64,000 nt of DNA from Gammaproteobacteria bacterium Ga0074134 (GCA_001464965.1 LNEJ01000056.1:1186-65185); one strand, 5' to 3'; counted from the stretch's first letter, positions 1 through 34,739 are shown. Numbers and translations are program-made. Notes: generated by a model not told the origin, from the sequence alone.

Positions 1-428
1 GATCGGCCCGCGCCGTAGGGTCGGCAGTGACTACTGCCGGGGCAGACGCAGCCTGGACTACGGCCTGAGCCGGCGTGGGCGCCGGCGTTTGCACGGGGAC
101 AGGCACATCAGCCTGGCTTGCCACTGGCGCCGCCGAGGACACGACTGGCACTGTCTGAGGCGGCAAAGCCTTTTGCATAACCTCCGGCGGCGGAGCACTG
201 CGGGGGATGGGTAACTGGGCGGGAACAGGCGGGACAGGGGTGATCTGCTCGGCTGCGGCGAGCGACACATCCCACTCGAACGGCGGCGGTTCGATGGGCC
301 TGGCAAGAGCAAACACGGCGGCAATCACCAGACCGCCCACCACGCCGTGGAAGGCCAGCGATACCCCCCAGCCGTTGATATGGCCGCGCCGGGGAATGAT
401 TCCATCTTCAGGGTAAACCGCGCTCACG
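1..428 (-). CDS. tonB: TonB (partial, runs off the window start). It begins with GTG at ~428, overlapping the exbD stop in GTGA. It has an N-terminal transmembrane helix followed by a Pro-rich spacer.
   Basis: I translated the minus strand from 428 by hand. It gives VSAVYPEDGIIPRRGHINGWGVSLAFHGVVGGLVIAAVFALARPIEPPPFEWDV...PVPPVPAQLPIPRSAPPPEV.., a typical TonB N-terminus with TM helix and proline-rich region. It sits directly downstream of exbB-exbD. The ORF track lacks it because there is no stop inside the window. Confidence 0.75.
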
Positions 429-798
429 AACGCTCCACCTGCAAACTGACCTTGCTATAACCGAGGCCCTTCACCGTATCCACCAGCGTAACGAACCGCT
501 CCAGCGGCGTGGCACGGTCGGCCCGCACCACCACGGCGGTTTCCTTGGCATAGGCGCCCAGCGCGGCGCCCAGACCGTCCATGCTGATGGCCTGCTGATT
601 CAAAAACAGCGCCCCGTCGTTTTTGAGGGTAAGCACCACAGGTTGCTCGATCGCGGCTGTAGCGTGCTTGGCCTTGGCCAGATCGATGGGAATCTGACCG
701 GTGGAGATGAACGTGGCGGTGGTGAGCACGATCACCAGCAGCACCAGCATCACATCCACCAGGGGGATGACGTTGATCTGGTCGAGATCACGCTCCAC
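424..798 (-). CDS. exbD: Biopolymer transport protein ExbD/TolR
   Basis: 124 aa with NVIPLVDVMLVLLVIVL, the single-TM signature of ExbD/TolR. It overlaps exbB and precedes tonB. Confidence 0.85.
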   Translation of the reverse strand: MERDLDQINVIPLVDVMLVLLVIVLTTATFISTGQIPIDLAKAKHATAAIEQPVVLTLKNDGALFLNQQAISMDGLGAALGAYAKETAVVVRADRATPLERFVTLVDTVKGLGYSKVSLQVERS

Positions 799-1216
799 GG
801 CGCACGTCCTCGTAGCGGCTGAGCAGCTCCTTCACCCGCCGCCGCAGCACGTTGTTCAGCGCCACGCAAGGAATGGCGACTACCAACCCCATCGCCGTGG
901 CCTTGAGCGCCATGCTCAGACCCACCATGATGGAGCGCACGTCCATGGTGCCCTGCGTGCCCATGGTGTGAAACGTCACCATGATGCCGAACACCGTGCC
1001 GAGCAGGCCGATATAAGGCGCGTTCGCCGCGATGGTACCGATCACCGTGAGGCGGCGCGTCAGCTCGGTCTCAAGCGCCTGCGCGCTGGCGAACGCCAGC
1101 ACATCTACGCGGCGGTATAGCGACCAGCGCTCCACCGCCACCGCTACCGCCCAGACACTGAGCAGCAGCAGCAGGCCAATCACACCATAATCGACAACAT
1201 TAGACAGAAGAGACAT
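788..1216 (-). CDS. exbB: MotA/TolQ/ExbB proton-channel protein. The likely start is MSLLSNVV at 1216; the listed ORF start at 1249 is an N-extension.
   Basis: Three TM segments and the conserved TolQ/ExbB motif GLLGTVFGIM..F. It is first in an exbB-exbD-tonB cluster. Confidence 0.85.
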   Translation of the reverse strand: MSLLSNVVDYGVIGLLLLLSVWAVAVAVERWSLYRRVDVLAFASAQALETELTRRLTVIGTIAANAPYIGLLGTVFGIMVTFHTMGTQGTMDVRSIMVGLSMALKATAMGLVVAIPCVALNNVLRRRVKELLSRYEDVRRGA

Positions 1217-1244
1217 AGAACGTTTGCCACACACCACAAAGATA

Positions 1245-1270
1245 GACAATGAGAATCATAATCATTATCT
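1245..1270. promoter_or_regulatory. Putative Fur box (iron box) about 30 bp upstream of the exbB start
   Basis: The plus strand reads gacaatgagaatcataatcattatctatc. It contains a perfect aatcattatc plus gaCaatgaGaatcat, matching the GATAATGATAATCATTATC consensus. The position is right for repressing exbB-exbD-tonB. Confidence 0.5.
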
Positions 1271-1362
1271 ATCCTGAGGTCAATTGACAATTATCCCAAT
1301 AACGACGGCTGGACGGGGCGTGTAATCCAGCCCATGCGAACTCGCAGTTCAGCACTCCGCCA

Positions 1363-2955
1363 CTATTGGGCCTCGACCAACCCCGCACTCCCCCAACCAT
1401 CGCCTGCCAGATAACGATTGGCGTGAATACTGGTGCGAGTACCATTGCTTTGGCTCCATACCGCCAAGGCGTTGCCGGCACTATCCATTGCAATCTGGGG
1501 AGATAAAGCATTTCCCATGCCGTTGGTTTCAATCAATCCCGGCGTTCCCCACCCTGTTCCGCCAGCGGCATCGAAACGATTACTCCATATGCTGTAGTGC
1601 GCGCCATCCCACTGTCGCCATACGGCCAGGGCATTTCCCGCACCGTCAAGAGCGGCCTGAGGTGTTAGCGCATGCCCATCATCATGCTCGATGATCCGAG
1701 CCACTTGCCAGACGCCTGCAACATAGCGGTTAGACCAGATGTTTTTCCAGGGGGGAATGTTATCGTGGGGATTATTGTCGAAATATTGCTCCCAGACCAC
1801 CAGCGCATCGCCATTGCCCATCATGGCAATCCGTGGCGCGGCGGCCGCCCAGTTGGCGTCGCTCTCGAGACGTGCTTGTGCTTGCCAGCCTGATCCCGTG
1901 ACATAGCGGCTGGCGTAGATATGATTTGACTGCGCCCATACCGCCAAGGCATTGCCATTGGCATCCATGGCAAGATGGGGAGTATCGACATTTCCGCTGA
2001 CGAGCGGGTTGTTGCTGGGGTCGGCCGGGATTACTGAATTATCGCTGACCAGGGACGCCCCGCCCCACCGCTGGCTTGCCGCATCATAACGATTGGCCCA
2101 AAGGTTATAGCGTTTCTGCTGTACGCTATCGTACTGACCGGGTATCACACTGCTGGCCGCCATTTGCCGCCATACCGCCACGAAATTGCCTTTGCCATCC
2201 GCGGCCATCTGAGGTGAATTGGCGTCTGCCGTATTGGCCTCGATCGTATCAGGGGTCGCACCCCATTTCCCCGCAACGGCATCATAGCGATTGGCTCTGA
2301 TATTTTTGCGCACGCCATCGGACTGCTCCCATACGGCCACGAAATTGCCTGCGCCATCCGCGGCAATGTGCGGGTTACTGGCATCATGCGCTGTGAGTTT
2401 GCACTGTGAACCCAGCTCAACGACGATGGCGCTATTATCGGTCTCGATTTGCCAAACCCCGCCCCATTGCTGCTTGATGGCATCATATCGATTGGCCCAA
2501 ATACCGCCGGCGGCGACCTTGGCAGCCTCGCAATGGGGAGGCAATTTACTCTCATCTATTTCAGTAGTGGGATCATCCAAGACTTCGACCTTAGCCCTAA
2601 CAACTTCAATGTGGTGCCAAACGGCAATCGCATTGCCAGCGGCATCGACGGCGATCTGGGGTAGATCGGCATCCCCAGCGCTGTCATTCTCGATCATCTG
2701 TGGACTGCCCCAGCCGGAGCCAGCCACGTAACGATTAGCCCAGATATTCTTGTGTGCGCCATCGAACTTGGACCATACCGCAAAGGCATTGCCCTTGCCA
2801 TCGACTGCGATTTGCGGGTCATATGATGTATTGGCGACGACCCCAGTATAGCCAGGTACCGGACCGATCTGCGGCTGTTCCTTATCGCCCCCGCCGCATG
2901 CGGCAATAATAGCGCCCGAGAGCAGAAGCACCGGGACTTTGAAACCAACTCGCAT
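1363..2955 (-). CDS. Tandem-repeat lipoprotein A. A signal peptide with lipobox LSGAIIAAC precedes eight copies of a ~46-aa repeat: PQIAxDxxGNAxAVW-QxDG----IWANRY-AGxGWG---xIExD.
   Basis: The start MRVGFKVPVLLLSGAIIAACGG at 2955 lies inside the listed ORF. The repeats are visible by eye. The gene is a paralogue of the next gene and is the right size for an 8-bladed beta-propeller. Confidence 0.7.
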   Translation of the reverse strand: MRVGFKVPVLLLSGAIIAACGGGDKEQPQIGPVPGYTGVVANTSYDPQIAVDGKGNAFAVWSKFDGAHKNIWANRYVAGSGWGSPQMIENDSAGDADLPQIAVDAAGNAIAVWHHIEVVRAKVEVLDDPTTEIDESKLPPHCEAAKVAAGGIWANRYDAIKQQWGGVWQIETDNSAIVVELGSQCKLTAHDASNPHIAADGAGNFVAVWEQSDGVRKNIRANRYDAVAGKWGATPDTIEANTADANSPQMAADGKGNFVAVWRQMAASSVIPGQYDSVQQKRYNLWANRYDAASQRWGGASLVSDNSVIPADPSNNPLVSGNVDTPHLAMDANGNALAVWAQSNHIYASRYVTGSGWQAQARLESDANWAAAAPRIAMMGNGDALVVWEQYFDNNPHDNIPPWKNIWSNRYVAGVWQVARIIEHDDGHALTPQAALDGAGNALAVWRQWDGAHYSIWSNRFDAAGGTGWGTPGLIETNGMGNALSPQIAMDSAGNALAVWSQSNGTRTSIHANRYLAGDGWGSAGLVEAQ

Positions 2956-2990
2956 GATCGCGCCCTTAAAACAAGATGTGAAATCGCTCA

Positions 2991-4766
2991 TCAAAAACGG
3001 CGTTGCCAGATGCTCCAGCGCGAACCGCCACGCTGGCGCCACACGGAGATGACATTGCCGCCATTACTGATAGCAGGCTGGGGATCATGAGCATCCCCAG
3101 CGTCATTTTCCTCTGCAAGTGCCGCGACACTCCAACCGCCCGCCGTATAACGATTGGCCCAGATGTTCCAGTGGACGCCGTCGTACTGGCTCCACATCGC
3201 AACGGCATCACCATTGCCATTGAGGGAGACAGCCGGCTCACTGGCATCGCCTGCATTATCGGTTTCGATAAGCGCCTCTCCTGCCCAGGCATTCTGCACA
3301 GAGCTAAAACGGTTCGCCCAGATGTTATGCCGTGCGCCATCGAATTGCCGCCAAACCGCAATCGCGTCACCATTGGCATTAATGGCTATCTGCGGGGCAT
3401 TCACATCCCCCCTATTATCCTTTTCCATGAGTGCTGCCGTACCCCAGGCACCTGACACATAACGATTCGACCAGATGCTATAACGGCCGCTGCTGTCTGC
3501 CTGCCGCCACACGGCAATCACATTACCGCCGCTATCCTGAACAATTTGAGGGTCGAGCGCTGCGCCCTCATCGGCATGCTCGACGAGCACAGGCGCGGCG
3601 GCCCAGGCAACGCCAGCGTAGCGGTTGGCATAAATATTGGTCATAAGCGTGCCATCCGCCAATGCGATAGTTTGCTGCCATAGAACAACGGCATTACCCG
3701 AACTATCGATGACAGCGCGCGGCTGCTCCGCGTTGTGCCCTTTAAGGTTATCCTCTTCGAGCCTTTCAGGACCGCTCCACACCCCGCCAGAATATCGGCT
3801 GGCGACAACACTCCCTACGTTATACCGATCCTGGCCCTGCTGACTAGAAGGATTACAATTAGTAGCAACAGGAGCACCAGCCGCCGTGCAGAATGGGCCG
3901 TCCAGCTGGTGCCACACGATGATTGCCTGACCAGTTGCACTTACCGCCACCTGGGGAGTGTCCGCATTGACCAACACTTCCGTTGCACTGGCATTTATGG
4001 CTTTAATAAGGGTGGCCGCACCCCATTGCCCCGTGATTGCGTCGTAATGGCTGGCCCAGATGCTGGAAACGGGGAAAGAGAGGCTGTCATCGTGCTGCTG
4101 CCAGACCACCCAGGCATCACCACCAGGCGTCATGGCAATCTGAGGATTACGGGCATCGCCCTTGCCGCTGCTGACATCCTCCACCCTGGCATCCCACTCA
4201 GCGCGATCCGCCGCATAACGCCGTGCCTTAATTTTCCAGTAATGGTTCACACTGTCCCATTGCTGCCACACGGCGAGCGCATTGCCATCAGCATCCATGG
4301 CAATGCGTGGCACCTCGGCGTCCCCCGTATCATCCCTTTCAAGCAGCGCCACCCCTGGCGTAAAACTCCAGGTATACGGCGCCACCAAGGCATTGCCTGC
4401 GGCATCCTTCGCAGCGGTGGTAATGGTCACCGTATAAAGTTTATTTAGATCGAGATCCCCTGCCGGGGTAAAAACCGCGGTTTTATACGTATAACTTACG
4501 GTGCCCGCAACCGGTTTGCCGTCAGCACTCACGGCAAAGGTTGCCGTGGTGAGCGTGGCAGGATTCATATCCTCGGAGAATGTAGCGGTGATCGTAGTAT
4601 GCGAGGGTCCCAGCTTCACGCTATCGAGGGGGGTGGTGGCAATGACTGCCGGGGCAGTCGCATCAACAGACGATGGCGCTATTTCATCCTTCCCCCTTAA
4701 ACAGGCGGAAAGAAACAGGCTGAACAGCACCGCAACGAGCAACATATGCCCTGAACTCGTCCGCAT
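2991..4766 (-). CDS. Tandem-repeat lipoprotein B. It has a lipobox (FLSAC), an N-terminal Ig-like (SbsA/Big-type) domain, and eight copies of the same ~46-aa repeat as gene A.
   Basis: The start MRTSSGHMLLVAVLFSLFLSAC follows a GGAGGG ribosome-binding site at ~4770. Residues ~60-150 read like a bacterial Ig-like domain (TVSYTYKTAVFTPAGDL..YTVTITTAAKDAAGNAL). The rest is the GNAxAVWxQ...IWANRY repeat. Confidence 0.7.
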   Translation of the reverse strand: MRTSSGHMLLVAVLFSLFLSACLRGKDEIAPSSVDATAPAVIATTPLDSVKLGPSHTTITATFSEDMNPATLTTATFAVSADGKPVAGTVSYTYKTAVFTPAGDLDLNKLYTVTITTAAKDAAGNALVAPYTWSFTPGVALLERDDTGDAEVPRIAMDADGNALAVWQQWDSVNHYWKIKARRYAADRAEWDARVEDVSSGKGDARNPQIAMTPGGDAWVVWQQHDDSLSFPVSSIWASHYDAITGQWGAATLIKAINASATEVLVNADTPQVAVSATGQAIIVWHQLDGPFCTAAGAPVATNCNPSSQQGQDRYNVGSVVASRYSGGVWSGPERLEEDNLKGHNAEQPRAVIDSSGNAVVLWQQTIALADGTLMTNIYANRYAGVAWAAAPVLVEHADEGAALDPQIVQDSGGNVIAVWRQADSSGRYSIWSNRYVSGAWGTAALMEKDNRGDVNAPQIAINANGDAIAVWRQFDGARHNIWANRFSSVQNAWAGEALIETDNAGDASEPAVSLNGNGDAVAMWSQYDGVHWNIWANRYTAGGWSVAALAEENDAGDAHDPQPAISNGGNVISVWRQRGGSRWSIWQRRF

Positions 4767-5503
4767 GGACCCTCCCTCAAAATGTAGAAAATATTGTTTT
4801 TGTATCTCGCAAGTGTCTATCCATGGCGCATGGCCTGTCAATATACTCCCTGCTTTATCCTAACGACGATTGGAACCATAGCGACGACGATTTTGTGTAC
4901 TAGGCAGTCACAGCAGCGTCCAACCGCCACTTTTAACCCGAATGTTTCATGAATTCGCGCGATGATCACGCAGAATTTGGATTGATAGGGGAATTTTGTG
5001 AAGGAGCGCCGTAGTGATTCATACACCCGACTGAACAAAATTCACATAGTAGTCAAAAGACCAGGGAGGGCGCGCGTTAATTTATGAAATATTCGGGTTA
5101 GGTTAAATTCGCCCCCGATCAATCGTCAGGATACACCCCGTACCGGCCCATACCGGGGAACAATCAAGCATGGCCCCGGCTCAACCGCCTTGGTCTCTCG
5201 CCACGCTTTCATCCAACGTAGATTGACAGGGCTATGTGGGATCGCCTTTGAAAACATAGAATAAAGCATAACAGGGACATAGACGCGACATGCCGTGATA
5301 TTTATGCAAGAATTCCGCTGTTAAGGAAGCTCTGAATAATTCCATCCTGGAATTCTCAGAGCACGAAAAGCAAAAAATGTGATTTTTGCTTTTCTTCATT
5401 TTTCAATCACTTGCCGTGATCGAAAAATGCCGGCACCTCCATGTGCCGAGGAGCCTCTGAATAAATCAGAGGTTCCTTAAATGAACTTGCATGGGAATAC
5501 CCA

Positions 5504-6622
5504 ATGATCGTCATACTTAAACCGAATATAGACAAGTCCGGCGCGGAATATCTCGCCCTGATGGAGTCCCTCAGCAATCTGCCGAATATCCAGATCCGGC
5601 GGCATGAGGAAACAGGCGCGCAACAAGTGTTGACTGAGCTCTATCTGATCGGCAATACCTCTGTGCTCTCAAAGGAGGACATTCAGGCCCTGCCCGGCGT
5701 GGAGCGCGTGGTGCGCATTTCCGAGGAATACCGGATTCTGGGAAGACACAAGGACGACGGACGCGCGACGCACTTTGATTACAATGGCGTGCGTTTCGGA
5801 CAAGACACGCTCAATATCTTCGCCGGCCTGTGCGCCGTCGACAATCCGCAGCATGTCGAAGCAATGATGAAGGCGCTGCGCGACAACGGCCAGGTCTGCA
5901 CGCGTATGGGCGCTTACAAGCCGCGCACCAATCCCTACTCTTTCCAGGGACACGGCAAGGCCTGCCTGCCCTATGTATTCGAACTCGCGGGCAAATACGG
6001 CATCCAGGTCATCGCGATGGAAGTGACGCACGAATCGCACGTCAATGAAATCCGGGACGCACTGGAACAAACCGGCAACCCCACTGGCGTCATGCTGCAA
6101 ATCGGCACGCGCAACACCCAGAACTTCGAGCTGCTCAAAATCGTCGGACGGCAACTGGAATTCCCTGTGCTGCTCAAACGCGGCTTCGGCATTACGCTCG
6201 AGGAATCGCTGAATGCCGCCGAATACCTGGCCAGCGAGGGCAACCGCAAGGTGGTATTCGGCCTACGCGGCATGAAAACCAATGCGGGCGATCCGCACCG
6301 CAACTTTGTGGATTTCGCCCATGTACCCGTGATCAAACGCCTGACGCGCATGCCGGTATGCATCGACCCCTCGCACTCCGTCGGCACGCGCGACCGCGCC
6401 CCTGACATGATACTCGACATCATGCATGTGACGGCACAAGGCGTCCTCGCCGGGGCAAACATGATACTGGTGGATTTTCACCCCGCCCCCGCCAAGGCGC
6501 TGGTGGATGGCCCGCAGGCGCTGTTGCTGGAGGAACTACCCTACTTTATTGAAGATGTCAGGATTGCACGGCAGGCCTACGAGGCACGCACTGCGCTTGC
6601 TGGAAAATTTCAGGTGACGTAA
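5504..6622 (+). CDS. 3-deoxy-7-phosphoheptulonate (DAHP) synthase, type Iβ (KDO8P-synthase-like core with an N-terminal regulatory domain)
   Basis: Motifs GAYKPRTNPYSFQG, IGTRN, LLKRGFG and CIDPSHS match the DAHPS/KDO8PS class-I family. A ~90-aa N-terminal extension is typical of Iβ enzymes. Confidence 0.6.
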   Translation: MIVILKPNIDKSGAEYLALMESLSNLPNIQIRRHEETGAQQVLTELYLIGNTSVLSKEDIQALPGVERVVRISEEYRILGRHKDDGRATHFDYNGVRFGQDTLNIFAGLCAVDNPQHVEAMMKALRDNGQVCTRMGAYKPRTNPYSFQGHGKACLPYVFELAGKYGIQVIAMEVTHESHVNEIRDALEQTGNPTGVMLQIGTRNTQNFELLKIVGRQLEFPVLLKRGFGITLEESLNAAEYLASEGNRKVVFGLRGMKTNAGDPHRNFVDFAHVPVIKRLTRMPVCIDPSHSVGTRDRAPDMILDIMHVTAQGVLAGANMILVDFHPAPAKALVDGPQALLLEELPYFIEDVRIARQAYEARTALAGKFQVT

Positions 6623-7750: not shown

Positions 7751-10057
7751 CTAATCATTGGAAGGAGGTGGTGGCGCGAGTACTTCGCGCATGCCGTTGG
7801 ATTGCAGGGGACCAACGACGCCAGCACGCTCCATCTCTTCGATGAGACGAGCGGCGCGGTTGTAGCCGATCTTGAGGCGACGCTGCACGCCCGATATCGA
7901 GGCACGGCGTGATTCGGTGACGATACGCAGCGCCTGATCGTAAAGCTGATCGGCCTCGCCGCCGGGTGGCTGGTCCTCGCCCATGTACTCTCCCCCGCCA
8001 GCCGTATCTTCACCCTGAAGGATCTCTTCAAGATACTGGGGCTCGCCAAGACGTTTGAGATGGTCCACAACTTTATGCACTTCATGGTCGGCGACAAATG
8101 CACCGTGCACGCGCACCGGCACGCCAGTGCCGGGTGCGAGGTACAGCATGTCACCGTGCCCCAGCAGTTGTTCCGCACCCATCTGATCAAGGATGGTGCG
8201 CGAATCAATTTTGGAGGAAACCTGGAAGGCAATGCGCGTCGGAATGTTGGCCTTGATAAGGCCGGTGATGACATCCACCGAGGGACGCTGGGTCGCCAAA
8301 ATCAAGTGTATGCCCGAGGCACGCGCCTTTTGGGCGAGACGCGCGATCAGCTCCTCCACCTTTTTGCCAACAACCATCATCATGTCGGCCAACTCATCGA
8401 CTACCACCACGATGTAGGGCAACGGCGCAAGTTCTTGGGCCACCATACCCTCCATCGGCTTGAATAGCGGGTCAGTAATCGGCTGACCGGCGTCGATGGC
8501 GTCCTGCACCTTTTTATTATAGCCGCCGATATTACGCACACCCATGGCGGCCATCAGGCGGTAACGCTTATCCATCTCCGCCACGCACCAGCGTAGGGCA
8601 TGGGCGGCCTCCTTCATGTCCGTCACCACGGGCGCCAACAGGTGGGGGATGCCTTCGTAGATCGACAGCTCCAGCATCTTGGGGTCGATCATGATCAGCC
8701 GCGCCTCTTTGGGCGTGGCGTTGTAAAGCAGGCTGAGGATCATGGCATTAACCGCCACTGATTTACCCGAGCCGGTGGTACCCGCCACCAACAAGTGCGG
8801 CATTTTGGCCAGATCCACTACCACCGGGTGACCGGCGATATTCTTGCCCAGCGCCAGGCTCAGGGGCGAGGAGGCGTTGTCGTACTCTTTGGAGCGCAGC
8901 ATCTCGCTCAGGCGCACAATCTCGCGGTGCTCATTGGGAATCTCCAGACCGACCACGGACTTGCCGGGAATAATTTCCACCACGCGCACGCTGATCACGG
9001 AGAGGGAACGCGCCAAGTCCTTAGCGAGTCCCGTGATCTGACTAACCTTCACTCCCGCTGCAGGCTGCAACTCGAAGCGGGTAATGACCGGCCCCGGATG
9101 CACCTCCACCACGATGGCCTCGATACCAAAATCCTTGAGCTTCATTTCAACCTGGCGTGACATGGCCTCAAGCGCGGCGGGAGACACCGATTCCTTGTGT
9201 ACCTCGGGGGCGTCGAGCAACGCCAGTGGCGGCAACTCTGTGTTTGCGGGATGCTCAAACATCGGAATCGTGATCTGGCGTTCCTTCTCCACCCGTGGGC
9301 TGGGTTCGACCTTCTTGATCACCGGTTCAATGCGCGGTGGCGGGCGCTGCTCGCGCTTGGCTTTATCGGCCACCAGTGCCTCGCCACGCACCTGGCTCGC
9401 GCGCCGCCCGGCCAGGTATTCCTTGAATCGCATCACACCCAGTCGCGCACTATCCAGCGCCCGCAACGTCATGCGCCCGGTGGCATCCATCAGGCGAAAC
9501 CAGGATAGCCCGGTAAACAAGGTTACACCGGTAAGAAACAATGCCAGGAGGAACAGCGTGGCCCCGATGGGGCTGAATGCGCTCGCCAGCGCGCCGCCCA
9601 CCACCTCGCCAAGGATACCGCCGGAATTGAGCGGCAGATCGGGCGCTTCTGAACTGAAGCGCAGCGTGGCCAATCCGCTGCCCGCCATCATCGTCAGCAC
9701 AAACCCCGCCACCTGCAGGCCCAGATGCTGCAAGGCCTCCGCCCTGTCCTCCGCCTGTTCCTTGTATAAAAGCCAGCCGCCAATACCGACCATTACGGGA
9801 AAAAGGTAGGCGAAATAGCCGAACAGATAAAGGAAAACATCGGCGAACCACGCGCCCGCCACACCGCCGCTGTTTTCAATCTTGTCAGTCATGCCGGTAT
9901 GCGACCAGCCCGGATCCGAGGGGTGATAAGTTACCAGCGATATCAGCAGATACACCGCAATCGCGCCCAGCACCAGAAGCGCGCCTTCGCGCAGACCGCG
10001 GCTGACTGCCCCGATCAATGGCGATCCGCCATCTTTTTTACGTGTTGCTTGCGCCAA
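7751..10057 (-). CDS. ftsK: DNA translocase FtsK
   Basis: 768 aa with four N-terminal TM helices, a Pro-rich linker, Walker [10 protein letters not shown], and a gamma-domain (winged helix) at the C-terminus. Confidence 0.95.
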
Positions 10058-10226
10058 GAATCGAACCCTTAAAATATAACATAACGTACTAATATCATTG
10101 ATAAAGAAAAGGAATACCGCTTATCTTTCCGGCTTCGCATCACCTGTTACAATACCCTGCGCCATGAATCAAAAAGAAAACTCCATGCCTGCGCGGCAAA
10201 AAACATGCTAGCCTGTTTGCCGATGA

Positions 10227-11243
<1,017 letters not shown>

Positions 11244-11294
11244 TTCCACTACCTCGTCTGTTGCCGCACAGCGGTAACAGACACTTTCTCTGGT

Positions 11295-12425
11295 ATGCAA
11301 CTTACCCTCATCGACAGTCTCGATACCCTCCCCGCCGCCCAATGGAACAATCTGGCAGGCGATGAAAACCCCTTTCTGCGCCACGAATTCCTCGCCGCGC
11401 TGGAGCGCCACCATTGTGTCGGCGCGGAAGCAGGCTGGTGGCCTCAGCACCTGATTGTCGAAGAAAGCGGGCAACTGCTCGGCGCGGTGCCAATGTATCT
11501 CAAGAACAACTCCTATGGGGAATTTGTATTTGATTGGGCGTGGGCCGAGGCCTATCAGCGTAACGGGTTGCGTTACTACCCGAAGCTGGTGGTTTCCATC
11601 CCCTACACGCCAGCCACCGGATCACGTCTCCTATTGGCCGACGGACAGCAGCGCGAAGCCGTCGCCGACAGGCTCATCGAAGGCGCGCTCGATCATGCCC
11701 GCGGCCTGAACGTCTCGGGCCTGCACTGGCTGTTCACCCACGAAACCGACACCCAATGCCTGGAACAACACGGCCTGATGCGGCGTGTCGGCTGCCAGTA
11801 TCACTGGACGAACCAGGGCTACCGCGATTTTGATGATTTCTTGTGTGGCTTTTCCGCGGAGAAGCGCAAAAAGATCAAACGCGAGCGCCGCCAGGTGCGG
11901 GAATCCGGCGTGGCTCTGGAACTGTTGGATGGTCACCTGATCAGTGATGAGCTATGGGACATATTCCATGCCTTCTACGCGTCCACCTTCGATGAAAAAG
12001 GCGGCATCGCCTCGCTGACGCCGGGATTTTTCAAGGAATTGGGGCGGACCATGCCCGGCCAGACGCTGCTCATCATGGCCCGCCACAGCGGACGCTATGT
12101 GGCCGGAGCTTTTTTTCTGCGCGGACGGGATACATTGTATGGCCGCCACTGGGGCTGCAATGAACACTTCCACAGCCTGCACTTCGAGGCCTGCTATTAC
12201 CGCGCCATCGATTACTGTATCGAGCACGGCCTCACGCGTTTCGAGGCCGGAGCGCAGGGCGAACACAAGATCAGCCGCGGCTTTCTGCCCACAGCCACTT
12301 ACTCCGCACACTGGATCGCCCACGAAGGCTTCCGTAATGCCATCGAAGACTTTCTGACACGGGAGAAAATCGTCATGGAAAGACACATGCAGGAACTCGC
12401 AGAGCATTCGCCTTATAAATCTTAA
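11295..12425 (+). CDS. DUF482/FemAB-like GNAT-fold acyltransferase family protein
   Basis: 376 aa. The N-terminus (LIDSLDTLPAAQWNNLAG..NPFLRHEFLAALE.S..VG...GW.PQHL) is characteristic of the DUF482 family. Confidence 0.5.
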   Translation: MQLTLIDSLDTLPAAQWNNLAGDENPFLRHEFLAALERHHCVGAEAGWWPQHLIVEESGQLLGAVPMYLKNNSYGEFVFDWAWAEAYQRNGLRYYPKLVVSIPYTPATGSRLLLADGQQREAVADRLIEGALDHARGLNVSGLHWLFTHETDTQCLEQHGLMRRVGCQYHWTNQGYRDFDDFLCGFSAEKRKKIKRERRQVRESGVALELLDGHLISDELWDIFHAFYASTFDEKGGIASLTPGFFKELGRTMPGQTLLIMARHSGRYVAGAFFLRGRDTLYGRHWGCNEHFHSLHFEACYYRAIDYCIEHGLTRFEAGAQGEHKISRGFLPTATYSAHWIAHEGFRNAIEDFLTREKIVMERHMQELAEHSPYKS

Positions 12426-16701: not shown

Positions 16702-16881
16702 TCAGACTTCCTCGTCCGCTCCCAGTTTACGCGCCTCCTCTTCCAGCATGACAGGAATTTCGTCGCGGATTGGATAGGCCAGGCGATCTGCCTTGCAAAT
16801 CAGTTCCGCTTCCGCCTTTTTATAAACAAGCGGGCTCTTGCAGATGGGGCACACAAGAATATCGAGTAACTTTTTATCCAT
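16702..16881 (-). CDS. ycaR: Trm112-like small protein YcaR (UPF0434/DUF343), 59 aa; below the ORF-track length cut-off
   Basis: Hand translation gives [59 protein letters not shown], with the CPxC...zinc-ribbon signature. It sits in the conserved lpxK-ycaR-kdsB position. Confidence 0.7.
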
Positions 16882-17866
16882 TTTTCACCTTCCTCAACGC
16901 CAGCAAGTTAAGCAATTGCTTGCCAAAATCCTCATCCAGTTCCGCATCCACCGGCAAATACCAGTGCTGTGCACCGGCAAACCCGCGGCATTTTACCGCG
17001 TCTTTTTCGGTCATGATAACAGGCGCATTGTCGCCGAATTGAATGTCCTGCGCCACAAACGGATGGTGATCCGGGAAAGCATGTTCGATGATGGTCATTC
17101 CGAGGCTTTTGAGGTGATCGAAAAACCGCGCCGGATGACCAATGCCTGCAACCGCGTGGATAACCTGCCCCTGAAACTCCGCGGACTGTCGCATCATGGA
17201 TTCATCGCATAAATTACGGATCAAGCCGCTACGCAGCCGCATGGAGAATTGGCCTTGCCCTGCTTGCCCATTGTTCACCACGACCAGATCCACGCTGTTT
17301 AACCGGCCTTGCGGCTCGCGCAACGGCCCTGCGGGCAGGCAATACCCATTGCCGAAGCGGCGCGCGCCATCGATCACTGCGATTTCTATATCACGGCCCA
17401 GCGCATAATGTTGCAAACCGTCGTCGGAGATGATGATGTCACACGCCGCGCTTTCCAGCACCTTTCTGGCGGCGGCAACGCGATTCGGCGCAACTGCCAT
17501 TGGGCATCCACTGCGCCGCGCCAGCAGCACCGCCTCATCTCCCACCAGGGCGGGGTCGCTGCCCGCATTCACCTGTTGCGGCCACCGGGGGGCATTGCCA
17601 CCATAGCCGCGGCTAACAATGGCGGGCGCATATCCAGCCTGCTTGAGATACTCAACCAGCCACGCCACCAACGGGGTTTTGCCAGTGCCGCCGACGCTGA
17701 TATTTCCAACCACGATTACCGGCACGGGCAGCCGCGTGATCTTGCGCAATCCGGTACGATACGCGATGCGGCGCAGCACGGCCACCAGACAGAACAGCCA
17801 GGACAGGGGCACTAGCAAGACCGATAGGGGATTATTGCTGTACCAATAATGATCCAGGCGCCGCAT
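16874..17866 (-). CDS. lpxK: Tetraacyldisaccharide 4'-kinase
   Basis: P-loop [13 protein letters not shown] and the msbA-lpxK arrangement. Confidence 0.9.
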
Positions 17867-17871
17867 GCGCG

Positions 17872-19656
17872 TTAACTGATCTCCGCATCTGTACTTGCTG
17901 TTTGCGGCGATGCAAACTGCATGCGATGCAGGCTGGCATAATGCCCGCCACGCGCCAGCAGCTCGGCGTGCCTGCCCTGCTCCACGATCCGGCCATGATC
18001 CATCACCACGATCACATCCGCCTGCTCAATAGTGGACAGCCGATGGGCGATAATCAGCGTGGTGCGGTTGCGCACAAGCTGGGCAAGCGCGGCCTGGATC
18101 AAGCGCTCTGATTCAGTATCCAGCGAGGCAGTAGCCTCGTCGAGAATCAGCACGGGCGCGTCCTTCAGCAGAGCGCGGGCAATCGCCAGGCGCTGGCGCT
18201 GGCCGCCGGACAGCATCATACCCTTCTCACCGACGATGGTCTGCAAACCCTGCGGCAGTTTACGGATAAACTCCATCGCATGCGCCGCCTCGGCGGCACG
18301 CATGATATCCGCCTCGTTCACGCTGCCCTGGCGGCCATAGGCAATGTTATTGGCGATAGTGTCATTGAACAGTGTCACATCCTGACCTACCAGCGCGATT
18401 TGATTACGCAGGTCTTCAAGCATGAAGTCGCGGATGTCACAGCCGTCAAGCGTGATGCTGCCCATGGCCGGATCATAAAAACGCGGCAGCAAGCTGACCA
18501 GTGTTGTTTTACCGCTACCTGAGCGCCCGACAAAGGCGACCGTTTGGCCGGGCTCGATCTTCAGATTGATATTTTCCAGCACCCTGCCCTTCGTTGCGGC
18601 ATAGGCAAACGAGACATTGTCATATTCGATGGCGCCACGCGCGCGTTCGATGCGAACAGTACCGGTATCCTTTTCCGCCTCACAATCCAGCAGGCCAAAA
18701 ATACTTTCCGAGGCAACGATGCCGCGCTGTATCGCAGAATGAATTGTGGTCAGCCGCTTGAGCGGTGTGAGCAGCATGGTCATGGCGACGATGAACGACA
18801 TAAACGTGCCCACCGTGATCTTTGCCAGCATGGAATCCATGGTCGCCAGATAGATGATGCCAGCCAGCGCAGACCCTGCAACCAGTTGAATCACGGGAAC
18901 GCTCGCTTCCCGCGTCGCCGTCATCTTCATGTGCTGGCGCCGGTTGACTGCGTTCACGTCGTCAAAAATATCCGCCTGGTGGCGCTGGCCGCCGAAAATC
19001 TTGATGACACGCTGCCCTTCAATAGCCTGGCCCGCCGCCTCGGTAACCCCGCCCATGCTTGCCTGGATGCGGCCACTGATGCGCCGGAAACGCCTGTTCA
19101 CATAGGCCACCAGAAATGCGATGAAGGGTCCGGTCAACATAAAGGTGATGGCCAGCATCCAGTTCAAGTAAAACATCCAGGCCAAAAGGCCAGCGATAGT
19201 CAGGGTATCCCGGACAACAACAGTCAACACACTGGTGGATGCCTCCGCGACCTGCTCCACGTCATAGACCAGCTTTGAAATAAGCTGCCCCGATGAGCTT
19301 TTGTCATAGAAACCAGCGGGCAGACGCAGCATATGCTCAAACATCTCCCGGCGCAGATTGTTAATCACCTGCCGCCCCACCCAGGTCATGCCATAGGAGG
19401 ACAAAAATCCGCTGACACCGCGCAGCATGAACAATCCGATGATCGCCAGCGGTATGATGCGGATGGTATCCGGGTCTTTGTTTACAAAGCTGCCGTCCAG
19501 CATGGGCTTCATCAGCGCGGCGAATGCGGTGTCGGTGGCCGCCAGAATCACCATAGCAACGATGGAGGCAGCGAAGATTTTCCAGTAAGGGCGCGCATAG
19601 CCGAGCAGGCGGCGATAAACCACGGATGTGCTCTGGGAGGATGAATCAGTCATCAC
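17872..19656 (-). CDS. msbA: Lipid A export ABC transporter (permease plus ATPase)
   Basis: 594 aa with six TM helices, then a nucleotide-binding domain (GRSGSGKTT, LSGGQRQRLAIARALL). Located upstream of lpxK. Confidence 0.9.
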   Translation of the reverse strand: MMTDSSSQSTSVVYRRLLGYARPYWKIFAASIVAMVILAATDTAFAALMKPMLDGSFVNKDPDTIRIIPLAIIGLFMLRGVSGFLSSYGMTWVGRQVINNLRREMFEHMLRLPAGFYDKSSSGQLISKLVYDVEQVAEASTSVLTVVVRDTLTIAGLLAWMFYLNWMLAITFMLTGPFIAFLVAYVNRRFRRISGRIQASMGGVTEAAGQAIEGQRVIKIFGGQRHQADIFDDVNAVNRRQHMKMTATREASVPVIQLVAGSALAGIIYLATMDSMLAKITVGTFMSFIVAMTMLLTPLKRLTTIHSAIQRGIVASESIFGLLDCEAEKDTGTVRIERARGAIEYDNVSFAYAATKGRVLENINLKIEPGQTVAFVGRSGSGKTTLVSLLPRFYDPAMGSITLDGCDIRDFMLEDLRNQIALVGQDVTLFNDTIANNIAYGRQGSVNEADIMRAAEAAHAMEFIRKLPQGLQTIVGEKGMMLSGGQRQRLAIARALLKDAPVLILDEATASLDTESERLIQAALAQLVRNRTTLIIAHRLSTIEQADVIVVMDHGRIVEQGRHAELLARGGHYASLHRMQFASPQTASTDAEIS

Positions 19657-20078
19657 TATTTGTGAGCTGGCTTTTGCGTAGTGGCCAGTGACAGGTGAAC
19701 AAAACCAAGCTGTCCTGCGGCATCCATGGCAGTAACAACGGCTTGGTGCGCAGTCTTGGCATCGGCACTGATCAGTAGTGGAATTTTCGTGTCATCACCC
19801 GCCGCCACGCGAATCGCCTGTTTCAGGGTTTCAATCTGGGTATTGATCACCCGTTGCTGATTGACGTAGAAACGCCCTTCGGCATCAATGGTAATTTCCA
19901 GCGGTTTTTCCGGCGCCTGACGCTGCTCGGCTGAGGCTTCCGGAAGATCAAGGGTAATCGCGGACTGCTTGTTGAAGGTGGTGGAAAGCATAAAAAAAAC
20001 CACCAGCAGGAGTGCAACATCGACCAGCGGGATGAGGTTGACCTCGGGCTCTTCCCTGCGGGGCTTGCGGAAATTCAC
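19656..20078 (-). CDS. exbD: ExbD/TolR family protein (second copy)
   Basis: NLIPLVDVALLLVVFFM signature. Cotranscribed with a second exbB directly upstream of msbA. Confidence 0.85.
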   Translation of the reverse strand: MNFRKPRREEPEVNLIPLVDVALLLVVFFMLSTTFNKQSAITLDLPEASAEQRQAPEKPLEITIDAEGRFYVNQQRVINTQIETLKQAIRVAAGDDTKIPLLISADAKTAHQAVVTAMDAAGQLGFVHLSLATTQKPAHK

Positions 20079-20728
20079 GTGCGTTTCTTCCGCGCCACTG
20101 GCGTGGCCTCTTTTTCGCCGCCGCGCTCGCCGTGCAGCATCTCAACCATTTTAAGGGATTCTTGCTCCATGTAGACCACCAGCTCGTCCACACGCCCACG
20201 AAAGTAGCGGTAAAACATCAAGCTGGGGATCGCCACCAACAGGCCTGCGGCAGTGGCAATCAACGCCTCGGAAATCCCGCCCGCCAGCAACGTGGGGCTG
20301 CCCATGCGCTCTCCCTCGGAAAGGGCGTGGAATGCCCTGATGATACCCGTCACCGTACCGAGCAGACCCAACAACGGTGAAATCGATGCAATCGTGCCCA
20401 GTGTATTCAGATAGCGCTCCAGTTCTGGCACCACCTGGCGGCCCACGTCCTCGATGGCCTCCTTCATAGTCACGCGGTCACGGCGCAAGTTCATCAAACC
20501 GGCAGCAAGGATGCGGCCCAGCGGAGAATCACTACGCAACATGGCCACATGGCTGGCATCGAGCTGACCGTCCTTCACCCATTGCCAGATCTGCGGCACC
20601 AGGCGCGAGGGACAAATACGTTTCCTCTGCAACGACCAGAGCCGTTCACCGATAATCGCCAGCGCGACGATGGAGCACAATATGATTGGCACCATCACCC
20701 AACCGCCAGCTTTGACTATTTCAAACAC
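20075..20728 (-). CDS. exbB: ExbB/TolQ/MotA family protein (second copy)
   Basis: 217 aa with three TM helices and the GLLGTVTGIIRAF motif. Confidence 0.85.
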   Translation of the reverse strand: MFEIVKAGGWVMVPIILCSIVALAIIGERLWSLQRKRICPSRLVPQIWQWVKDGQLDASHVAMLRSDSPLGRILAAGLMNLRRDRVTMKEAIEDVGRQVVPELERYLNTLGTIASISPLLGLLGTVTGIIRAFHALSEGERMGSPTLLAGGISEALIATAAGLLVAIPSLMFYRYFRGRVDELVVYMEQESLKMVEMLHGERGGEKEATPVARKKRT

Positions 20729-21829
20729 GCGGGATTCCTTACTCGATTACTCTTCAAAGCACAACCTAGCAATAATACTTGATTTGGGAGGGCAGTCATA
20801 GCAACTGCAACCGCAAATCACGTTACAAGAAATGCATCGTGCGGCGCAAAACTGGAGTGTGGTGCTTTCGGCACCTTGAGGACATTAAACCACGCATGGC
20901 AGCGAGCCGAGGGAACGGGTCAACCGGAAGTTCAGAGAAAAAAGGCGTTTTGAAGTATCCTGCCTTTGCCGGATTCCAACCCATCCCTGGCTGGCATGCG
21001 CCCTTCAGGGTAAATGACAGCCACCGGAAAAATTAGCGTTATTCGATTAGGCGAATCGCTGTCGACTTAGCAAAAAATAATTCGGTTATTTTATTTTAAA
21101 TCAATGGCATGAAATTTTCATTAAAAATATGTTTACATGACGCGCGGAGATATGATAAAGGTATGCCGCCCTGATACGGCTTAAAAAGGACGCCATTGCT
21201 CACATAACTAAACATGGAGGTTGTTATGAAGAAATCGCATTATCCTCGGTATCTCGGTAGTGGCTGCTGCTTCGAGCCTGCTCTCGAATCCTGCCTTTTG
21301 TCAGCCAGCGGCCGATAGTCCAAACGAAGTTTTTGCCTCACCCATCACCACCAACAAATCAGGGCTTCAAACAAGGCCAGGCCAACAGCCCCAAAGCACC
21401 GGGAGCGAAGCGTCTAGCGCAATTGGCGCTGGTTCTCCGCCGTCGGCCCAAAATTTGAGAAAAATCATTGGCGCGACACCACAAGACTTAACGACATTAT
21501 CCGCCTGTACCTGGTGGTGGGTGCATGGCAACCACAATTGGAGCTGGCGTGGCATCCCGTTTATAGGGTTCAGGGTCAACCTGAGCGCACGGAGCTGGGC
21601 CACATATAGGACAAGCACGGGCTTTTGTGGCACGCCGCTGATTATGGATAGATTGCATGTTGAGGCTCGAACTCATGGAATGAATGCTGATTCATTCGTC
21701 CAGAGAACCGCTTTCAACGTTGATACCGTGGACGTATCCGATTCGAGAACGCAACTTGGCGGCAACCGGGGAAGATGACCCAAGCTCCAAAATTTTGGGG
21801 TTGGACAAACGTGTTAGCGAGGAAAAACC

Positions 21830-31106: not shown

Positions 31107-32651
31107 TTAAAGCATGAAACCCAGATTGCGTTGCGACGGGCTCCAGTTGACCAGGTTGGGAAAGATATCCAGCAACTGGCTGTCCGACAATCCGAACCAG
31201 CGTCCCAGCGTGGCGCCCAACTGGTCGACCGACGTGGTCGGCAGCAGGCTGCCGTTACCGATCTGGTCGGGGCTGTCGTCGAAGTTGTTATTGTTGGCGT
31301 TCTTGGTGCCGTAGATGGGGAAGGTGCCATACAGGTCGCCACCGCGGACCGCTCCGCCCATTACGAAGTGGTGTGCGCCCCAGCCGTGGTCGGTGCCGTC
31401 GCCGTTGCTGGTGAAGGTGCGGCCGAAGTCGCTGGCGGTGAAAGTGGTGACCTTGTCCTGCGCACCGATCGCCGCCAGCGTGGCGTCGAAGTAGCTCATT
31501 GCCTGCGCCACGCGCGCCATTAGCTGGGCATGGTTGGCGTTCTGCGCGTCATGCGTGTCGAAGCCGCCGATGCTGACGAAGAATACCTGGCGCCGCGCGC
31601 CAATATCGATCTCGCTACTTGCATCCACCAGCCTAGCCACCATCTGCAGCTGTTGCGCCAGTGAATTGAAGGTGTAGGTGCCGGTGGCGGGGTTCAAATA
31701 TTGCAGCTTTGGGTCGGTATTGGGATTGTAGTTGGTGGCCGACGTGCCGAACCTGGCGTCCGACGGCGGACGCGCGGCCAGTGCCGCACGCAGCAGTGAC
31801 TCAGACTGGATGGAACGCGCCGAGACCGCCGCCAGATCGCTCTCGAAGACATGTCCGCCGCGCGTGGATTGCACGATGCGCTCCAGCGCCGCGCCAACCG
31901 CGGTGGAGCCGTAGATCTGGCCCGCCGAGTTGGTTCCCATACGGATCGCGCCGTTGGCCGATACCTGATATTGACGGATGTTCTCGCCGGTCAGCCAGAC
32001 CGCGTTACCCGACACCGAGATCGATGTGAATACCGAGCGTGCGTTCATGGCCGCCAGCAGATCGCCCATGCGGCCACCCCAGCCTTTCGTGGCGCCCTCG
32101 GGCAGGAAGGACTGCCAGATGTTTTGCTGGTCGTTGTGAGAGAACAGGTTTTTGGGTTTGGGGTGCGAGTTCTGGCTGTACTGCACTTTGGTGGTCGGCA
32201 TGATCAACGGCCCGACGTTGGGCAGGATGGCCAGCCGTTTGTCGGTGTCGAACATCGTCTGCAGCGCACCCATCACAGGGTGCAGCGCGAAGCTGCGTCC
32301 CTGCGCATTGGCCGGATTGATGGGCAGGACACCCCCCAGGGCGACGGGTGAGATGCCGTTACCGCCACGCGGGGTGCCTGGCGCCAGCAGCGCGATCGAG
32401 TCGGGCGCTTGGTTGCGGATCACCGTATAGTTGGCGAACGATGTTGCGTCGGTGGGCAACACCATATTGATCGAGTCGTTGCCACCAAACATAAACAGGC
32501 AGACGATGGCCTTATAGTCTCCGGCCGCCTGCGCAGAGGCGGTGCCCATGGCGAGGAGGTTCAGCGCCAGCGGTCCGCCCACGGCGGTGAGCGCCGTCAG
32601 GGCGCCAGCGTGGCGCAGGAACATGCGGCGTGATGTGTTGATATCGGTCAT
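31107..32651 (-). CDS. DUF1501 family protein (sulfatase-like fold) with a twin-arginine signal
   Basis: Tat motif SRRMFLRHAGALTALTA and the DUF1501 hallmark ..IVCLFMFGGNDSINMVLP... Pairs with a DUF1800 gene directly upstream. Confidence 0.7.
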   Translation of the reverse strand: MTDINTSRRMFLRHAGALTALTAVGGPLALNLLAMGTASAQAAGDYKAIVCLFMFGGNDSINMVLPTDATSFANYTVIRNQAPDSIALLAPGTPRGGNGISPVALGGVLPINPANAQGRSFALHPVMGALQTMFDTDKRLAILPNVGPLIMPTTKVQYSQNSHPKPKNLFSHNDQQNIWQSFLPEGATKGWGGRMGDLLAAMNARSVFTSISVSGNAVWLTGENIRQYQVSANGAIRMGTNSAGQIYGSTAVGAALERIVQSTRGGHVFESDLAAVSARSIQSESLLRAALAARPPSDARFGTSATNYNPNTDPKLQYLNPATGTYTFNSLAQQLQMVARLVDASSEIDIGARRQVFFVSIGGFDTHDAQNANHAQLMARVAQAMSYFDATLAAIGAQDKVTTFTASDFGRTFTSNGDGTDHGWGAHHFVMGGAVRGGDLYGTFPIYGTKNANNNNFDDSPDQIGNGSLLPTTSVDQLGATLGRWFGLSDSQLLDIFPNLVNWSPSQRNLGFML

Positions 32652-32675
32652 GTCGGTTTCCTTTGGATCGCGGCC

Positions 32676-34487: not shown

Positions 34488-34739
34488 GACTGGCTTCTGG
34501 TAAAAATGCTACATCATATAGGATCTTAAACGTATTGTGCCGATCATCCTGAAAACTTCAGTGAACAGGTTCTCAAGGCGGCGCAGATTCTGTGCATTAG
34601 GCATTCGCAGCAGGTTCCAACTGCCGTTTTTAGTTCAGTCCATCCGGGCTTGTTCGTATTTGCGGTATGGGTGAGGATGGTATTATTAGTTGCGGCCGCT
34701 CTTGTGTACAAGCGCATGCAGCGTCGCGCCACAACCCAC

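Follow-up and report, generated by a model that had tools for sequence, protein, structure and literature searches.

We describe two adjacent genes, B and A, in a 64-kb stretch of DNA (the window) that code for predicted lipoproteins with highly regular repeats. With moderate confidence, judging from comparative data and structure models, we favour the view that B and A form a self-contained pair of genes, headed by an upstream element of their own, and encode multivalent, lectin-like binding propellers of the envelope or cell surface, and that the adjoining Fur-repressed exbBD-tonB genes are a separate unit whose adjacency is lineage-specific. The following features were assigned to the pair:

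2991..4766, minus strand: gene B, 591 aa predicted lipoprotein with signal peptide and lipobox, Big_5 Ig-like domain and predicted eight-bladed beta-propeller (ORF and metagenome gene call)
4701..4766, minus strand: B signal peptide and lipobox, residues 1-22, LSAC, Cys22 (translation)
4359..4664, minus strand: B Ig-like domain, residues 35-136 (Pfam Big_5)
2994..4355, minus strand: B propeller, residues 138-591, eight repeats
1363..2955, minus strand: gene A, 530 aa predicted lipoprotein with signal peptide and lipobox and predicted eight-bladed beta-propeller (ORF and metagenome gene call)
2896..2955, minus strand: A signal peptide and lipobox, residues 1-20, IAAC, Cys20 (translation)
1366..2829, minus strand: A propeller, residues 43-530, eight repeats, loop insertions in blades 2 and 4

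An ORF scan and metagenome gene calls agreed on the length and strand of both genes, and the start codon of A lies 35 nt past the stop codon of B. Translation gave the lipoboxes MRVGFKVPVLLLSGAIIAAC in A and MRTSSGHMLLVAVLFSLFLSAC in B, whose last four residues (IAAC and LSAC, respectively) both fit the pattern [LVI][ASTVI][GAS]C. Cys20 of A was invariant in a close alignment (A2) and at least 90% conserved in a 55-sequence alignment, and Cys22 of B was conserved in at least 90% of B-type homologues. The two propellers are 45% identical. Judged from their sequences, A and B are paralogous exported proteins, each of which the lipobox cysteine would anchor to a membrane. The description of the genes in the initial annotation, as two head-to-tail paralogous lipoproteins, is thus upheld by the ORFs, the gene calls and the conserved lipobox Cys residues. 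The Ig-like domain that it had placed at the N-terminus of B was also recovered, as a Big_5 match in residues 35-136 (E 3.2e-23; 82.9 bits against a cut-off of 23.6), and residues 41-137 form a beta-sandwich in the AF2 model. This domain may serve as a spacer between the membrane anchor and the propeller.

Repeats begin at residues 47, 99, 195, 248, 326, 374, 432 and 486 of A and at residues 153, 208, 271, 349, 406, 458, 510 and 562 of B. A profile built from the eight repeats of A alone recovered eight repeats in B, with independent E-values of 9e-6 to 2e-19 (19-63 bits); the best score in 200 shuffles of B was 5.9 bits. The number of repeats claimed previously is therefore correct for both proteins. 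The claimed repeat length of about 46 residues holds for the span of the motif then quoted (~46 aa) but not for the period, which is ~52 aa (48-58, and up to 96 at loop insertions). The motif reads PQIAxD-GNAxAVW-NIWANRY-GWG-LIETD and, loops included, is kept in all eight blades across phyla. Repeat 8 of B has no fourth strand; residues 139-141, which precede repeat 1, complete blade 8 in a "velcro" closure. Loop insertions in blade 2 of A hold Cys142 and Cys185, a further insertion occurs in blade 4 of this protein, and such Cys-paired loop cassettes have been gained or lost one blade at a time between relatives. As suggested in the initial annotation, the repeat lies outside the named propeller types: none of the named Pfam propeller repeats (Kelch, NHL, PQQ, WD40, YVTN-type, BNR/BNR_2/BNR_4 and SBBP) matched the propellers of A or B at E <= 1, and Pfam matches in these regions were at chance level only (DUF7589, E 0.13 in A; UPF0029, E 0.15 in B). 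The Asp-box of the sialidase/BNR superfamily (SxDxGxTW, strands 3-4) was absent from the A/B repeat alignment, which instead showed DxxGNAxAVW in the strand 1-2 hairpin, with another spacing and at another position.

In AF2 models of A (pLDDT 85.1, pTM 0.85) and B (pLDDT 85.2, pTM 0.79), eight four-stranded blades were present in each protein. Model confidence is good, and A and B are each predicted to fold as a closed eight-bladed beta-propeller, as had been proposed from repeat length and residue spacing; the nearest solved folds to both models were likewise eight-bladed propellers. The top ranks in Foldseek were occupied by sialidases and GH33 proteins (E 1e-10 to 1e-8), and the list also held GH145 (5mul, 5mum) and ulvan lyase (6byt). 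TM-scores against the sialidases were only 0.32-0.41, normalised to the query, and sialidases have six or seven blades, not eight. This ranking was therefore read as generic propeller similarity. A search of PDB sequences with the family profile gave no match (best E 0.4). Going by standard propeller topology rather than model coordinates, conserved and variable loops would share one face of the propeller.

A and B proved to have a large number of relatives. A sequence search with A returned more than 2,547 family matches, with E-values down to 1e-228 and 35-63% identity over 78-100% of A, and a profile search detected 47,772 representative clusters (50% identity) at E <= 1e-3, 9,097 of them at E <= 1e-30. 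Hosts included Proteobacteria, Acidobacteria, Nitrospirae, Clostridia, CPR bacteria and Thermoplasmata archaea, and in all of these groups the module took an exported or surface-tethered form. Among 120 homologues, exactly eight repeats were found in 99 and sixteen in six, and a lipobox was present in 77. Export signals, in the form of a signal peptide, lipobox or C-terminal membrane anchor, occurred across bacterial and archaeal members, those of Clostridia and CPR bacteria included; archaeal members combined a signal peptide, propeller, Ig-like domain, coiled coil and C-terminal membrane anchor. Fusion to Ig, PKD or FN3-like stalk domains was frequent, and the partners observed were Big_5, PKD, I-set, DUF7151, collagen and Glucodextran_B. 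Members differed widely in copy number and domain context, from one or two propellers up to giant proteins of 7,000 aa. A literature search for PDIAV and repeat motifs found nothing relevant. Taken at the level of sequence, A and B are thus members of a propeller family of bacteria and archaea that is very large but has neither a name nor a characterised representative.

Outside the window, the B-A pair was detected in seven loci (L005, L006, L007, L012, L085, L086 and L087), and wherever gene calls exist (the window, L085, L086 and L087) the spacer between B and A is 24-35 nt. The downstream side was readable in all of these loci except L006. It was occupied by a convergent histidine operon in L005, L012 and L086, by mfd in L007 and by unrelated genes in L087; exbBD-tonB followed the pair in only one of the six, L085, in addition to the window. 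In L085, the nearest relative, the order B-A-exbBD-tonB recurs, and the next gene encodes a TonB-dependent receptor of the siderophore type (TIGR01783, 232 bits; cut-off 223.5). ExbB and ExbD of the window share 97% identity with their L085 counterparts, compared with 71% for A and 55% for B, and the low identity of the two lipoproteins suggests the fast evolution typical of exposed proteins. Genes for a BtuF-like binding protein and cob genes were observed upstream in L085. A cobalamin link was considered on this account and rejected: no riboswitch was detected in the window, L085, L005, L006 or L012, and the receptor in L085 is of the siderophore type, not BtuB.

The sequences that bear on transcription of the two units, together with the genes downstream of A, are as follows:

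4788..4846, minus strand: conserved element upstream of B, with TTGACA at 4841-4836, TAGACA at 4819-4814 and AATATT at 4795-4790
1255..1283, minus strand: sigma-70-like exbB promoter, TTGACC-17-TATGAT, 10 of 12 positions, overlapped by the Fur box
1245..1269, minus strand: Fur box, two overlapping matches (17/19 and 16/19) to GATAATGATAATCATTATC
788..1216, minus strand: exbB, 142 aa (Pfam MotA_ExbB, E 5e-30; gene call)
424..798, minus strand: exbD, 124 aa (Pfam ExbD, E 2e-26)
1..427, minus strand: 5' part of tonB, which runs off the end of the window; complete on the contig, 251 aa (gene call and Pfam TonB_C in L001)

The element upstream of B is near-identical in L085, L086 and L012 and partial in L087, despite a different upstream neighbour gene, and contains a promoter-like match, TAGACA-18-AATATT. 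This element probably acts as promoter or operator for the B-A unit. Two points made in the initial annotation about the downstream region were correct. The exbB-exbD-tonB genes do adjoin A, with Pfam matches to MotA_ExbB, ExbD and TonB_C, and a Fur box is present; this box, however, sits at the exbB promoter, between the A stop codon and exbB and hence downstream of A, and not upstream of B. Its 17/19 match, at 1251-1269, overlaps the exbB -10 element. No other match of at least 14/19 occurs in the window (next best, 13/19), the equivalent position of L085 has a 15/19 match, and no Fur-like site of at least 11/19 was found upstream of B (4760-5510). Thus, exbB appears to have its own Fur-box promoter, exbB-exbD-tonB would be a Fur-repressed transcription unit distinct from B-A, and the comparative evidence gives no sign that exbB works with the lipoproteins. 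The gap between A and exbB is 146 nt, and the search for an intrinsic terminator there yielded weak hairpins only (z -0.14 in the window). Because no convincing terminator intervenes, read-through from A into exbB is possible, and for the same reason B-A could have been recruited to the TonB system in this lineage.

A wider survey of gene neighbourhoods was based on family loci found with a 12-sequence alignment, the 55-sequence alignment being too diverse. Homologues of ExbB, ExbD or a TonB-dependent receptor were present within 10 kb in none of 80 family loci from other species, in a search that recovered the window's second ExbB/ExbD-like pair at ~1e-16 as a positive control. A constant association of the repeat with tonB-exbBD or TonB-dependent receptors in other genomes, a point that the initial annotation had raised for checking, was thus not observed. 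Clustering of neighbours across 81 loci revealed no recurrent partner gene and no recurrent glycan-utilisation genes; the sole cluster present in more than six loci consisted of two-component-system proteins (12 loci) and was judged to be background.

These data bear directly on the role first proposed for the pair, in which A and B, as lipoproteins exposed on the surface, would capture an iron complex or other scarce ligand and pass this on to a TonB-dependent transporter that draws its energy from the neighbouring ExbB-ExbD-TonB, by analogy with BtuG/BtuB and XusB/XusA of Bacteroides. Head-to-tail adjacency across a short gap that has no clear terminator would suit such a role, as would the repeated gene order of L085 with its siderophore receptor. 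However, the Fur box and promoter lie downstream of A, with no Fur-like site upstream of B, exbBD-tonB is missing from five of the six other readable loci, and the survey of 80 family loci was negative. Moreover, neither the window nor the 10 kb beyond tonB yielded a TonB-dependent receptor, the family abounds in groups that are without a TonB system (archaea, Clostridia and CPR bacteria), and the fold match to BtuG ranks below about 50 other generic propeller matches. We consider this role quite unlikely, and the proximity of exbBD-tonB to B-A seems to have arisen locally by chance rather than to reflect a functional partnership. Given the recurring order in L085 and the siderophore-type receptor there, a local functional link between the pair and the TonB system may exist.

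Slightly better placed, although still unlikely, is the possibility that A and B are exported carbohydrate-active enzymes, i.e., glycoside hydrolases or polysaccharide lyases of a sialidase/BNR_4-like superfamily acting on exopolysaccharide or environmental glycans. The Foldseek ranking, GH145 and ulvan lyase included, points in this direction, and a few homologues just attain the Pfam BNR_4 cut-off of 27.3 bits, with scores of 27.3-34.5. Neither A nor B gave a match at E <= 1 to BNR_4 or BNR_2, and the low TM-scores, the discordant blade number, the missing Asp-box and the lack of recurrent glycan-utilisation genes nearby argue against it. Propeller enzymes build their active site from different residues in each blade, whereas in A and B identical residues occupy all eight, a pattern more typical of multivalent binders. 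It is very unlikely that the proteins are structural or scaffolding lipoproteins of the envelope, such as BamB-like docking platforms or surface-layer components with no small-molecule ligand. Archaeal members do resemble stalked surface-layer-associated proteins, and the conserved tandem pair suggests a heteromer, but no sequence relationship to BamB or PQQ repeats and no conserved partner gene were detected, and the widely varying copy number and domain context are more in keeping with adhesins or binding modules than with part of a fixed machine.

A multivalent binding role is most likely because the same motif is kept in all eight blades across phyla and close relatives vary in cysteine-paired loop insertions, which would lie on one face. 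We infer its lectin-like character from the symmetry of conservation and a generic fold resemblance; conservation of every blade could also stem from folding constraints alone. According to the mechanism that we favour, the propellers of A and B, tethered through their lipobox cysteines, would act as multivalent binders located in the envelope or at the surface of the cell, the two proteins may function as a pair, and exbB-exbD-tonB would lie outside this mechanism. A bolder scenario, which we regard as a long shot, is that a very large, undescribed class of near-symmetric eight-bladed surface propellers of bacteria, CPR and archaea serves for multivalent reception of some polymer common in the environment or of a metal-bearing ligand, and was recruited here before a Fur-regulated ExbBD-TonB system (and, in L085, a siderophore receptor) as a new proteobacterial capture device for TonB-dependent uptake.

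The propeller fold and lipoprotein anchoring are ordinary, and the TonB link is probably incidental. What remains is a set of about 48,000 clusters from bacteria and archaea with an unusually rigid eight-fold repeat. The Pfam copy searched does not contain this family, sequence comparison led to no solved structure of it, and no literature on it was found. If the ligands of these propellers were known, tens of thousands of envelope proteins of environmental microbes now labelled "hypothetical" could be annotated. Cultured carriers of the family, which are open to experiments, include Saccharospirillum impatiens, Saccharospirillum salsuginis, Geothrix fuzhouensis, Marinobacter sp. SS8-8, Noviherbaspirillum cavernae and Cupriavidus sp. 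WS.

The only curated model that was significantly matched is NF053835 (NCBIfam "PDIAV motif-containing lipoprotein"; E 5.5e-10 for A and 6e-7 for B), which also describes a lipoprotein with a PxIAxD-type repeat motif. Scores were below its cut-off of 90 bits (39.2 for A and 29.2 for B), as were those of homologues (39-59 bits in five of six, no match in the sixth), and on these scores NF053835 is related to the family of A and B only as a distant sister; a literature search found nothing on it. BamB (YfgL) is also an eight-bladed outer-membrane lipoprotein, but it has PQQ-like repeats, for which A and B gave no Pfam match, and, unlike BAM, A and B form a tandem pair, one of them with an Ig domain, and are related to proteins of archaea and Gram-positives. 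BtuG and XusB of Bacteroides belong to the lipoprotein partners of TonB-dependent transporters, a group that also takes in SusD-like and Slam-dependent surface lipoproteins. The fold match to BtuG and XusB is generic only, and whereas the genes for these proteins adjoin their transporter gene, no transporter gene and no conserved linkage were found for the window. Sialidase-like propellers, including BNR_4 (PF15892), GH145 and polysaccharide lyases, show remote fold similarity. These enzymes have six or seven blades; A and B have eight, do not match BNR_4 (unlike the few marginal homologues), are without Asp-boxes and show, as far as their sequences reveal, no asymmetric catalytic centre. The PLL, CV39L and BP39L lectins (PDB 5c9o, 6gxs and 6gxr) are seven-bladed, soluble and not lipidated, and at 8-15% identity they have no sequence-level match to A and B. 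They do share highly regular Trp-rich propeller repeats, and their multivalent sugar binding offers a model, by analogy, for the mechanism proposed for A and B.

Genes B and A, neighbouring paralogues in the window, lie head-to-tail just 5′ of exbB-exbD-tonB, as the initial annotation had described. Their arrangement, in window coordinates, is:

4788-4846, minus strand: conserved element of ~60 nt upstream of B, GTATATTGACAGGC-N9-ATGGATAGACACTTG-N4-GATACAAAAACAATATTT
2991-4766, minus strand: gene B, 591 aa (spacer of 35 nt to A)
1363-2955, minus strand: gene A, 530 aa (spacer of 146 nt to exbB)
788-1216, minus strand: exbB
424-798, minus strand: exbD
1-427, minus strand: 5′ part of tonB, cut at the window edge

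Gene calls of a matching contig (172 kb) from a drinking-water-treatment metagenome concur with these starts. As described before, each protein begins with a lipoprotein signal peptide, read in A as ...GAIIAAC (Cys20) and in B as ...LFLSAC (Cys22), and the lipobox Cys is kept among homologues of each. The Ig-like domain proposed at the B N-terminus corresponded to Pfam Big_5 (residues 35-136, E = 3e-23). The repeat, with consensus PQIAxDxxGNAxAVWxQxDGxxxNIWANRYxxGxGWGxxxLIExD, occurs in eight copies in A and eight in B. A profile of the A repeats alone recovered the eight B repeats with independent E-values of 9e-6 to 2e-19; the top score among 200 shuffles of B was 5.9 bits. The repeat count given before was therefore right, but the canonical period is ~52 aa, not ~46, and long loop insertions are present in blades A2, A4 and B3. 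Thus, the original observation was confirmed with small corrections.

AlphaFold2 models based on family alignments were confident for both A (pLDDT 85.1, pTM 0.85) and B (pLDDT 85.2, pTM 0.79). Their secondary structure contains eight four-stranded blades per protein, in agreement with the suggested eight-bladed beta-propeller. The modelled A C-terminus provides a complete fourth strand; in B, the last repeat is three-stranded only, and the ring is completed by a strand that precedes repeat 1 (residues 139-141). Sialidases ranked highest in Foldseek, but with low TM-scores. No specific structural relative was identified, and the predicted fold is best described as a generic eight-bladed propeller.

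It had also been proposed that A and B capture iron or another ligand for TonB-dependent uptake. Three lines of evidence, namely regulation, synteny of the pair and the family at large, indicate that B-A is not tied to TonB. With regard to regulation, the reported Fur box is present (1245-1269, 17/19 and 16/19 matches; the next best has 13/19) and is the only strong one in 64 kb. It is located between the A stop codon and exbB, overlapping the -10 hexamer of a well-matched sigma-70-like promoter (TTGACC-17-TATGAT), and L085, the nearest relative's locus (a MAG), has a like arrangement; no Fur-like site was found upstream of B. The element upstream of B reads TTGACA ... TAGACA ... AATATT, and its first two motifs, 22 nt apart, could form a direct-repeat operator. 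In L085, L086 and L012, a near-identical element precedes the B orthologue, and in L087 it is conserved in part. It is kept although the neighbour gene further upstream differs, moving with the pair into different genomic neighbourhoods. The lack of a Fur-like site together with this distinct element implies that B-A carries its own control region.

The B-A tandem was found again in other genomes at L005, L006, L007, L012, L085, L086 and L087; among these, only L085 has exbB-exbD-tonB 3′ of the pair. The pair adjoins a convergent histidine operon in L005, L012 and L086, mfd in L007 and unrelated genes in L087, and the L006 locus ends at a contig edge, with its downstream side outside the sequence. 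In L085, a siderophore-type TonB-dependent receptor gene comes next after tonB, and a weaker Fur-like site (14/19, L085 13526-13544) lies just 5′ of it. In the window itself and over the 10 kb beyond tonB, no TonB-dependent receptor of any type was detected.

The initial annotation had also asked whether the repeat always neighbours tonB-exbBD or TonB-dependent receptors. Within 10 kb, none of 80 loci from other species encoded a homologue of ExbB, ExbD or a TonB-dependent receptor, and no recurrent neighbour family was found across family loci. As a control, the search readily detected (~1e-16) a second, diverged ExbB/ExbD-like pair in the window:

20078-20746 and 19659-20141, minus strand: second ExbB/ExbD-like pair (Pfam MotA_ExbB, ExbD)
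17875-19791, minus strand: MsbA-like ABC exporter, directly after this pair
16877-18025, minus strand: LpxK, after the exporter

This region (16877-20746) is a lipid A export/biosynthesis neighbourhood, not an uptake one. Elsewhere in the window, a DUF1800 gene (610 aa) is paired with a neighbouring DUF1501 gene (522 aa; 31110-34508, minus strand). What looked like a partnership of B-A with TonB probably reflects a chance gene order in a single lineage. No convincing terminator was found between A and exbB, so read-through and a lineage-specific link are possible; in view of regulation, synteny and the family at large, TonB-linked capture appears quite unlikely.

Comparison of window 1-4766 with L085 8144-13485 revealed that the evolutionary rate changes abruptly between A and exbB. 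ExbB and ExbD are 97% identical, which makes the window and L085 close relatives, and the TonB C-terminus 87%; identity is 71% for A and 55% for B. Besides the lipid-anchor Cys, each protein contains exactly one Cys pair, both residues in loop insertions (A, Cys142/Cys185, window 2400-2532; B, Cys293/Cys304, window 3855-3890). The L085 orthologues (10001-11722 and 8144-9976) carry like cassettes in other blades, which suggests that putative disulfide-braced loops are gained and lost blade by blade. Each blade, loops included, retains the same residues across phyla, and close orthologues differ by loop insertions that each bring a Cys pair. These insertions sit in strand 2-3 and strand 4-1 loops. 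In standard propeller topology such loops lie on one face, which the Cys-bearing insertions of A and B would then share.

At E <= 1, the propeller parts gave no match to a Pfam repeat family and hit unrelated families at chance level only, consistent with the earlier view that the repeat fits no named propeller type. The sole curated link was NCBIfam 'PDIAV motif-containing lipoprotein' (A 39 bits, B 29 bits, cut-off 90); five of six other family members also scored below cut-off and one had no match. A few homologues reached Pfam BNR_4 at its threshold. Neither a PDB sequence search nor the literature yielded a relative or a report of the family. A word-indexed search gave >2,547 matches, and an exhaustive profile search 47,772 representative clusters at E <= 1e-3 (9,097 at E <= 1e-30), including multi-propeller giants of several thousand residues. 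Among the best 120 homologues, 99 had exactly eight repeats, six had sixteen and 77 had a lipobox.

The 304 loci located among species-representative genomes are distributed over Gamma-, Beta- and Deltaproteobacteria, Nitrospirae, Acidobacteria, Campylobacterota, Chloroflexi, Clostridia, CPR (Gracilibacteria, Peribacteria) and archaea (Thermoplasmata, Methanomassiliicoccales). Archaeal members open with a signal peptide and the eight-bladed propeller, followed by an Ig-like domain, a long coiled coil and a C-terminal membrane anchor. Those in L026, L030, L035 and L058 (Thermoplasmata and related archaeal MAGs) are ~36-43% identical to A, a likeness compatible with horizontal transfer; two such genes lie 4 kb apart in L035. 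Clostridial and CPR members are exported too, and the propeller is found fused to extracellular modules such as Ig, PKD and collagen-type domains. These architectures, export signals and partners imply an exported or surface-displayed module, both in organisms that have an outer membrane and in those that lack one.

We consider it modestly probable that A and B are a TonB-independent exported propeller pair with a multivalent binding role, the structure and independence from TonB being much firmer than the binding. B-A is a two-gene unit that is conserved together with an upstream element of its own and encodes two exported, lipobox-bearing paralogues, each an eight-bladed propeller, that of B on an Ig-like spacer; both diverge rapidly relative to ExbB/ExbD. 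The conserved blades and variable Cys-paired loops would make up a rigid, symmetric scaffold on which one disulfide-braced face diversifies, perhaps a lectin-like surface that binds multivalently in an oxidising compartment. A carbohydrate-active enzyme, BNR_4 or sialidase-like, seems unlikely, since a symmetric scaffold with one diversifying face fits a multivalent binder better than a single asymmetric active site. A structural scaffold is less likely than either uptake or catalysis.

A and B are members of a propeller family that is very widespread but has neither a name nor an assigned structure or function, and their modest interest lies mainly in how large and phylogenetically broad this family is. 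They are not a new kind of system, as exported beta-propeller lipoproteins are known as a kind; for the lectin-like multivalent binding suggested here, PLL/CV39L propellers may serve as a model.
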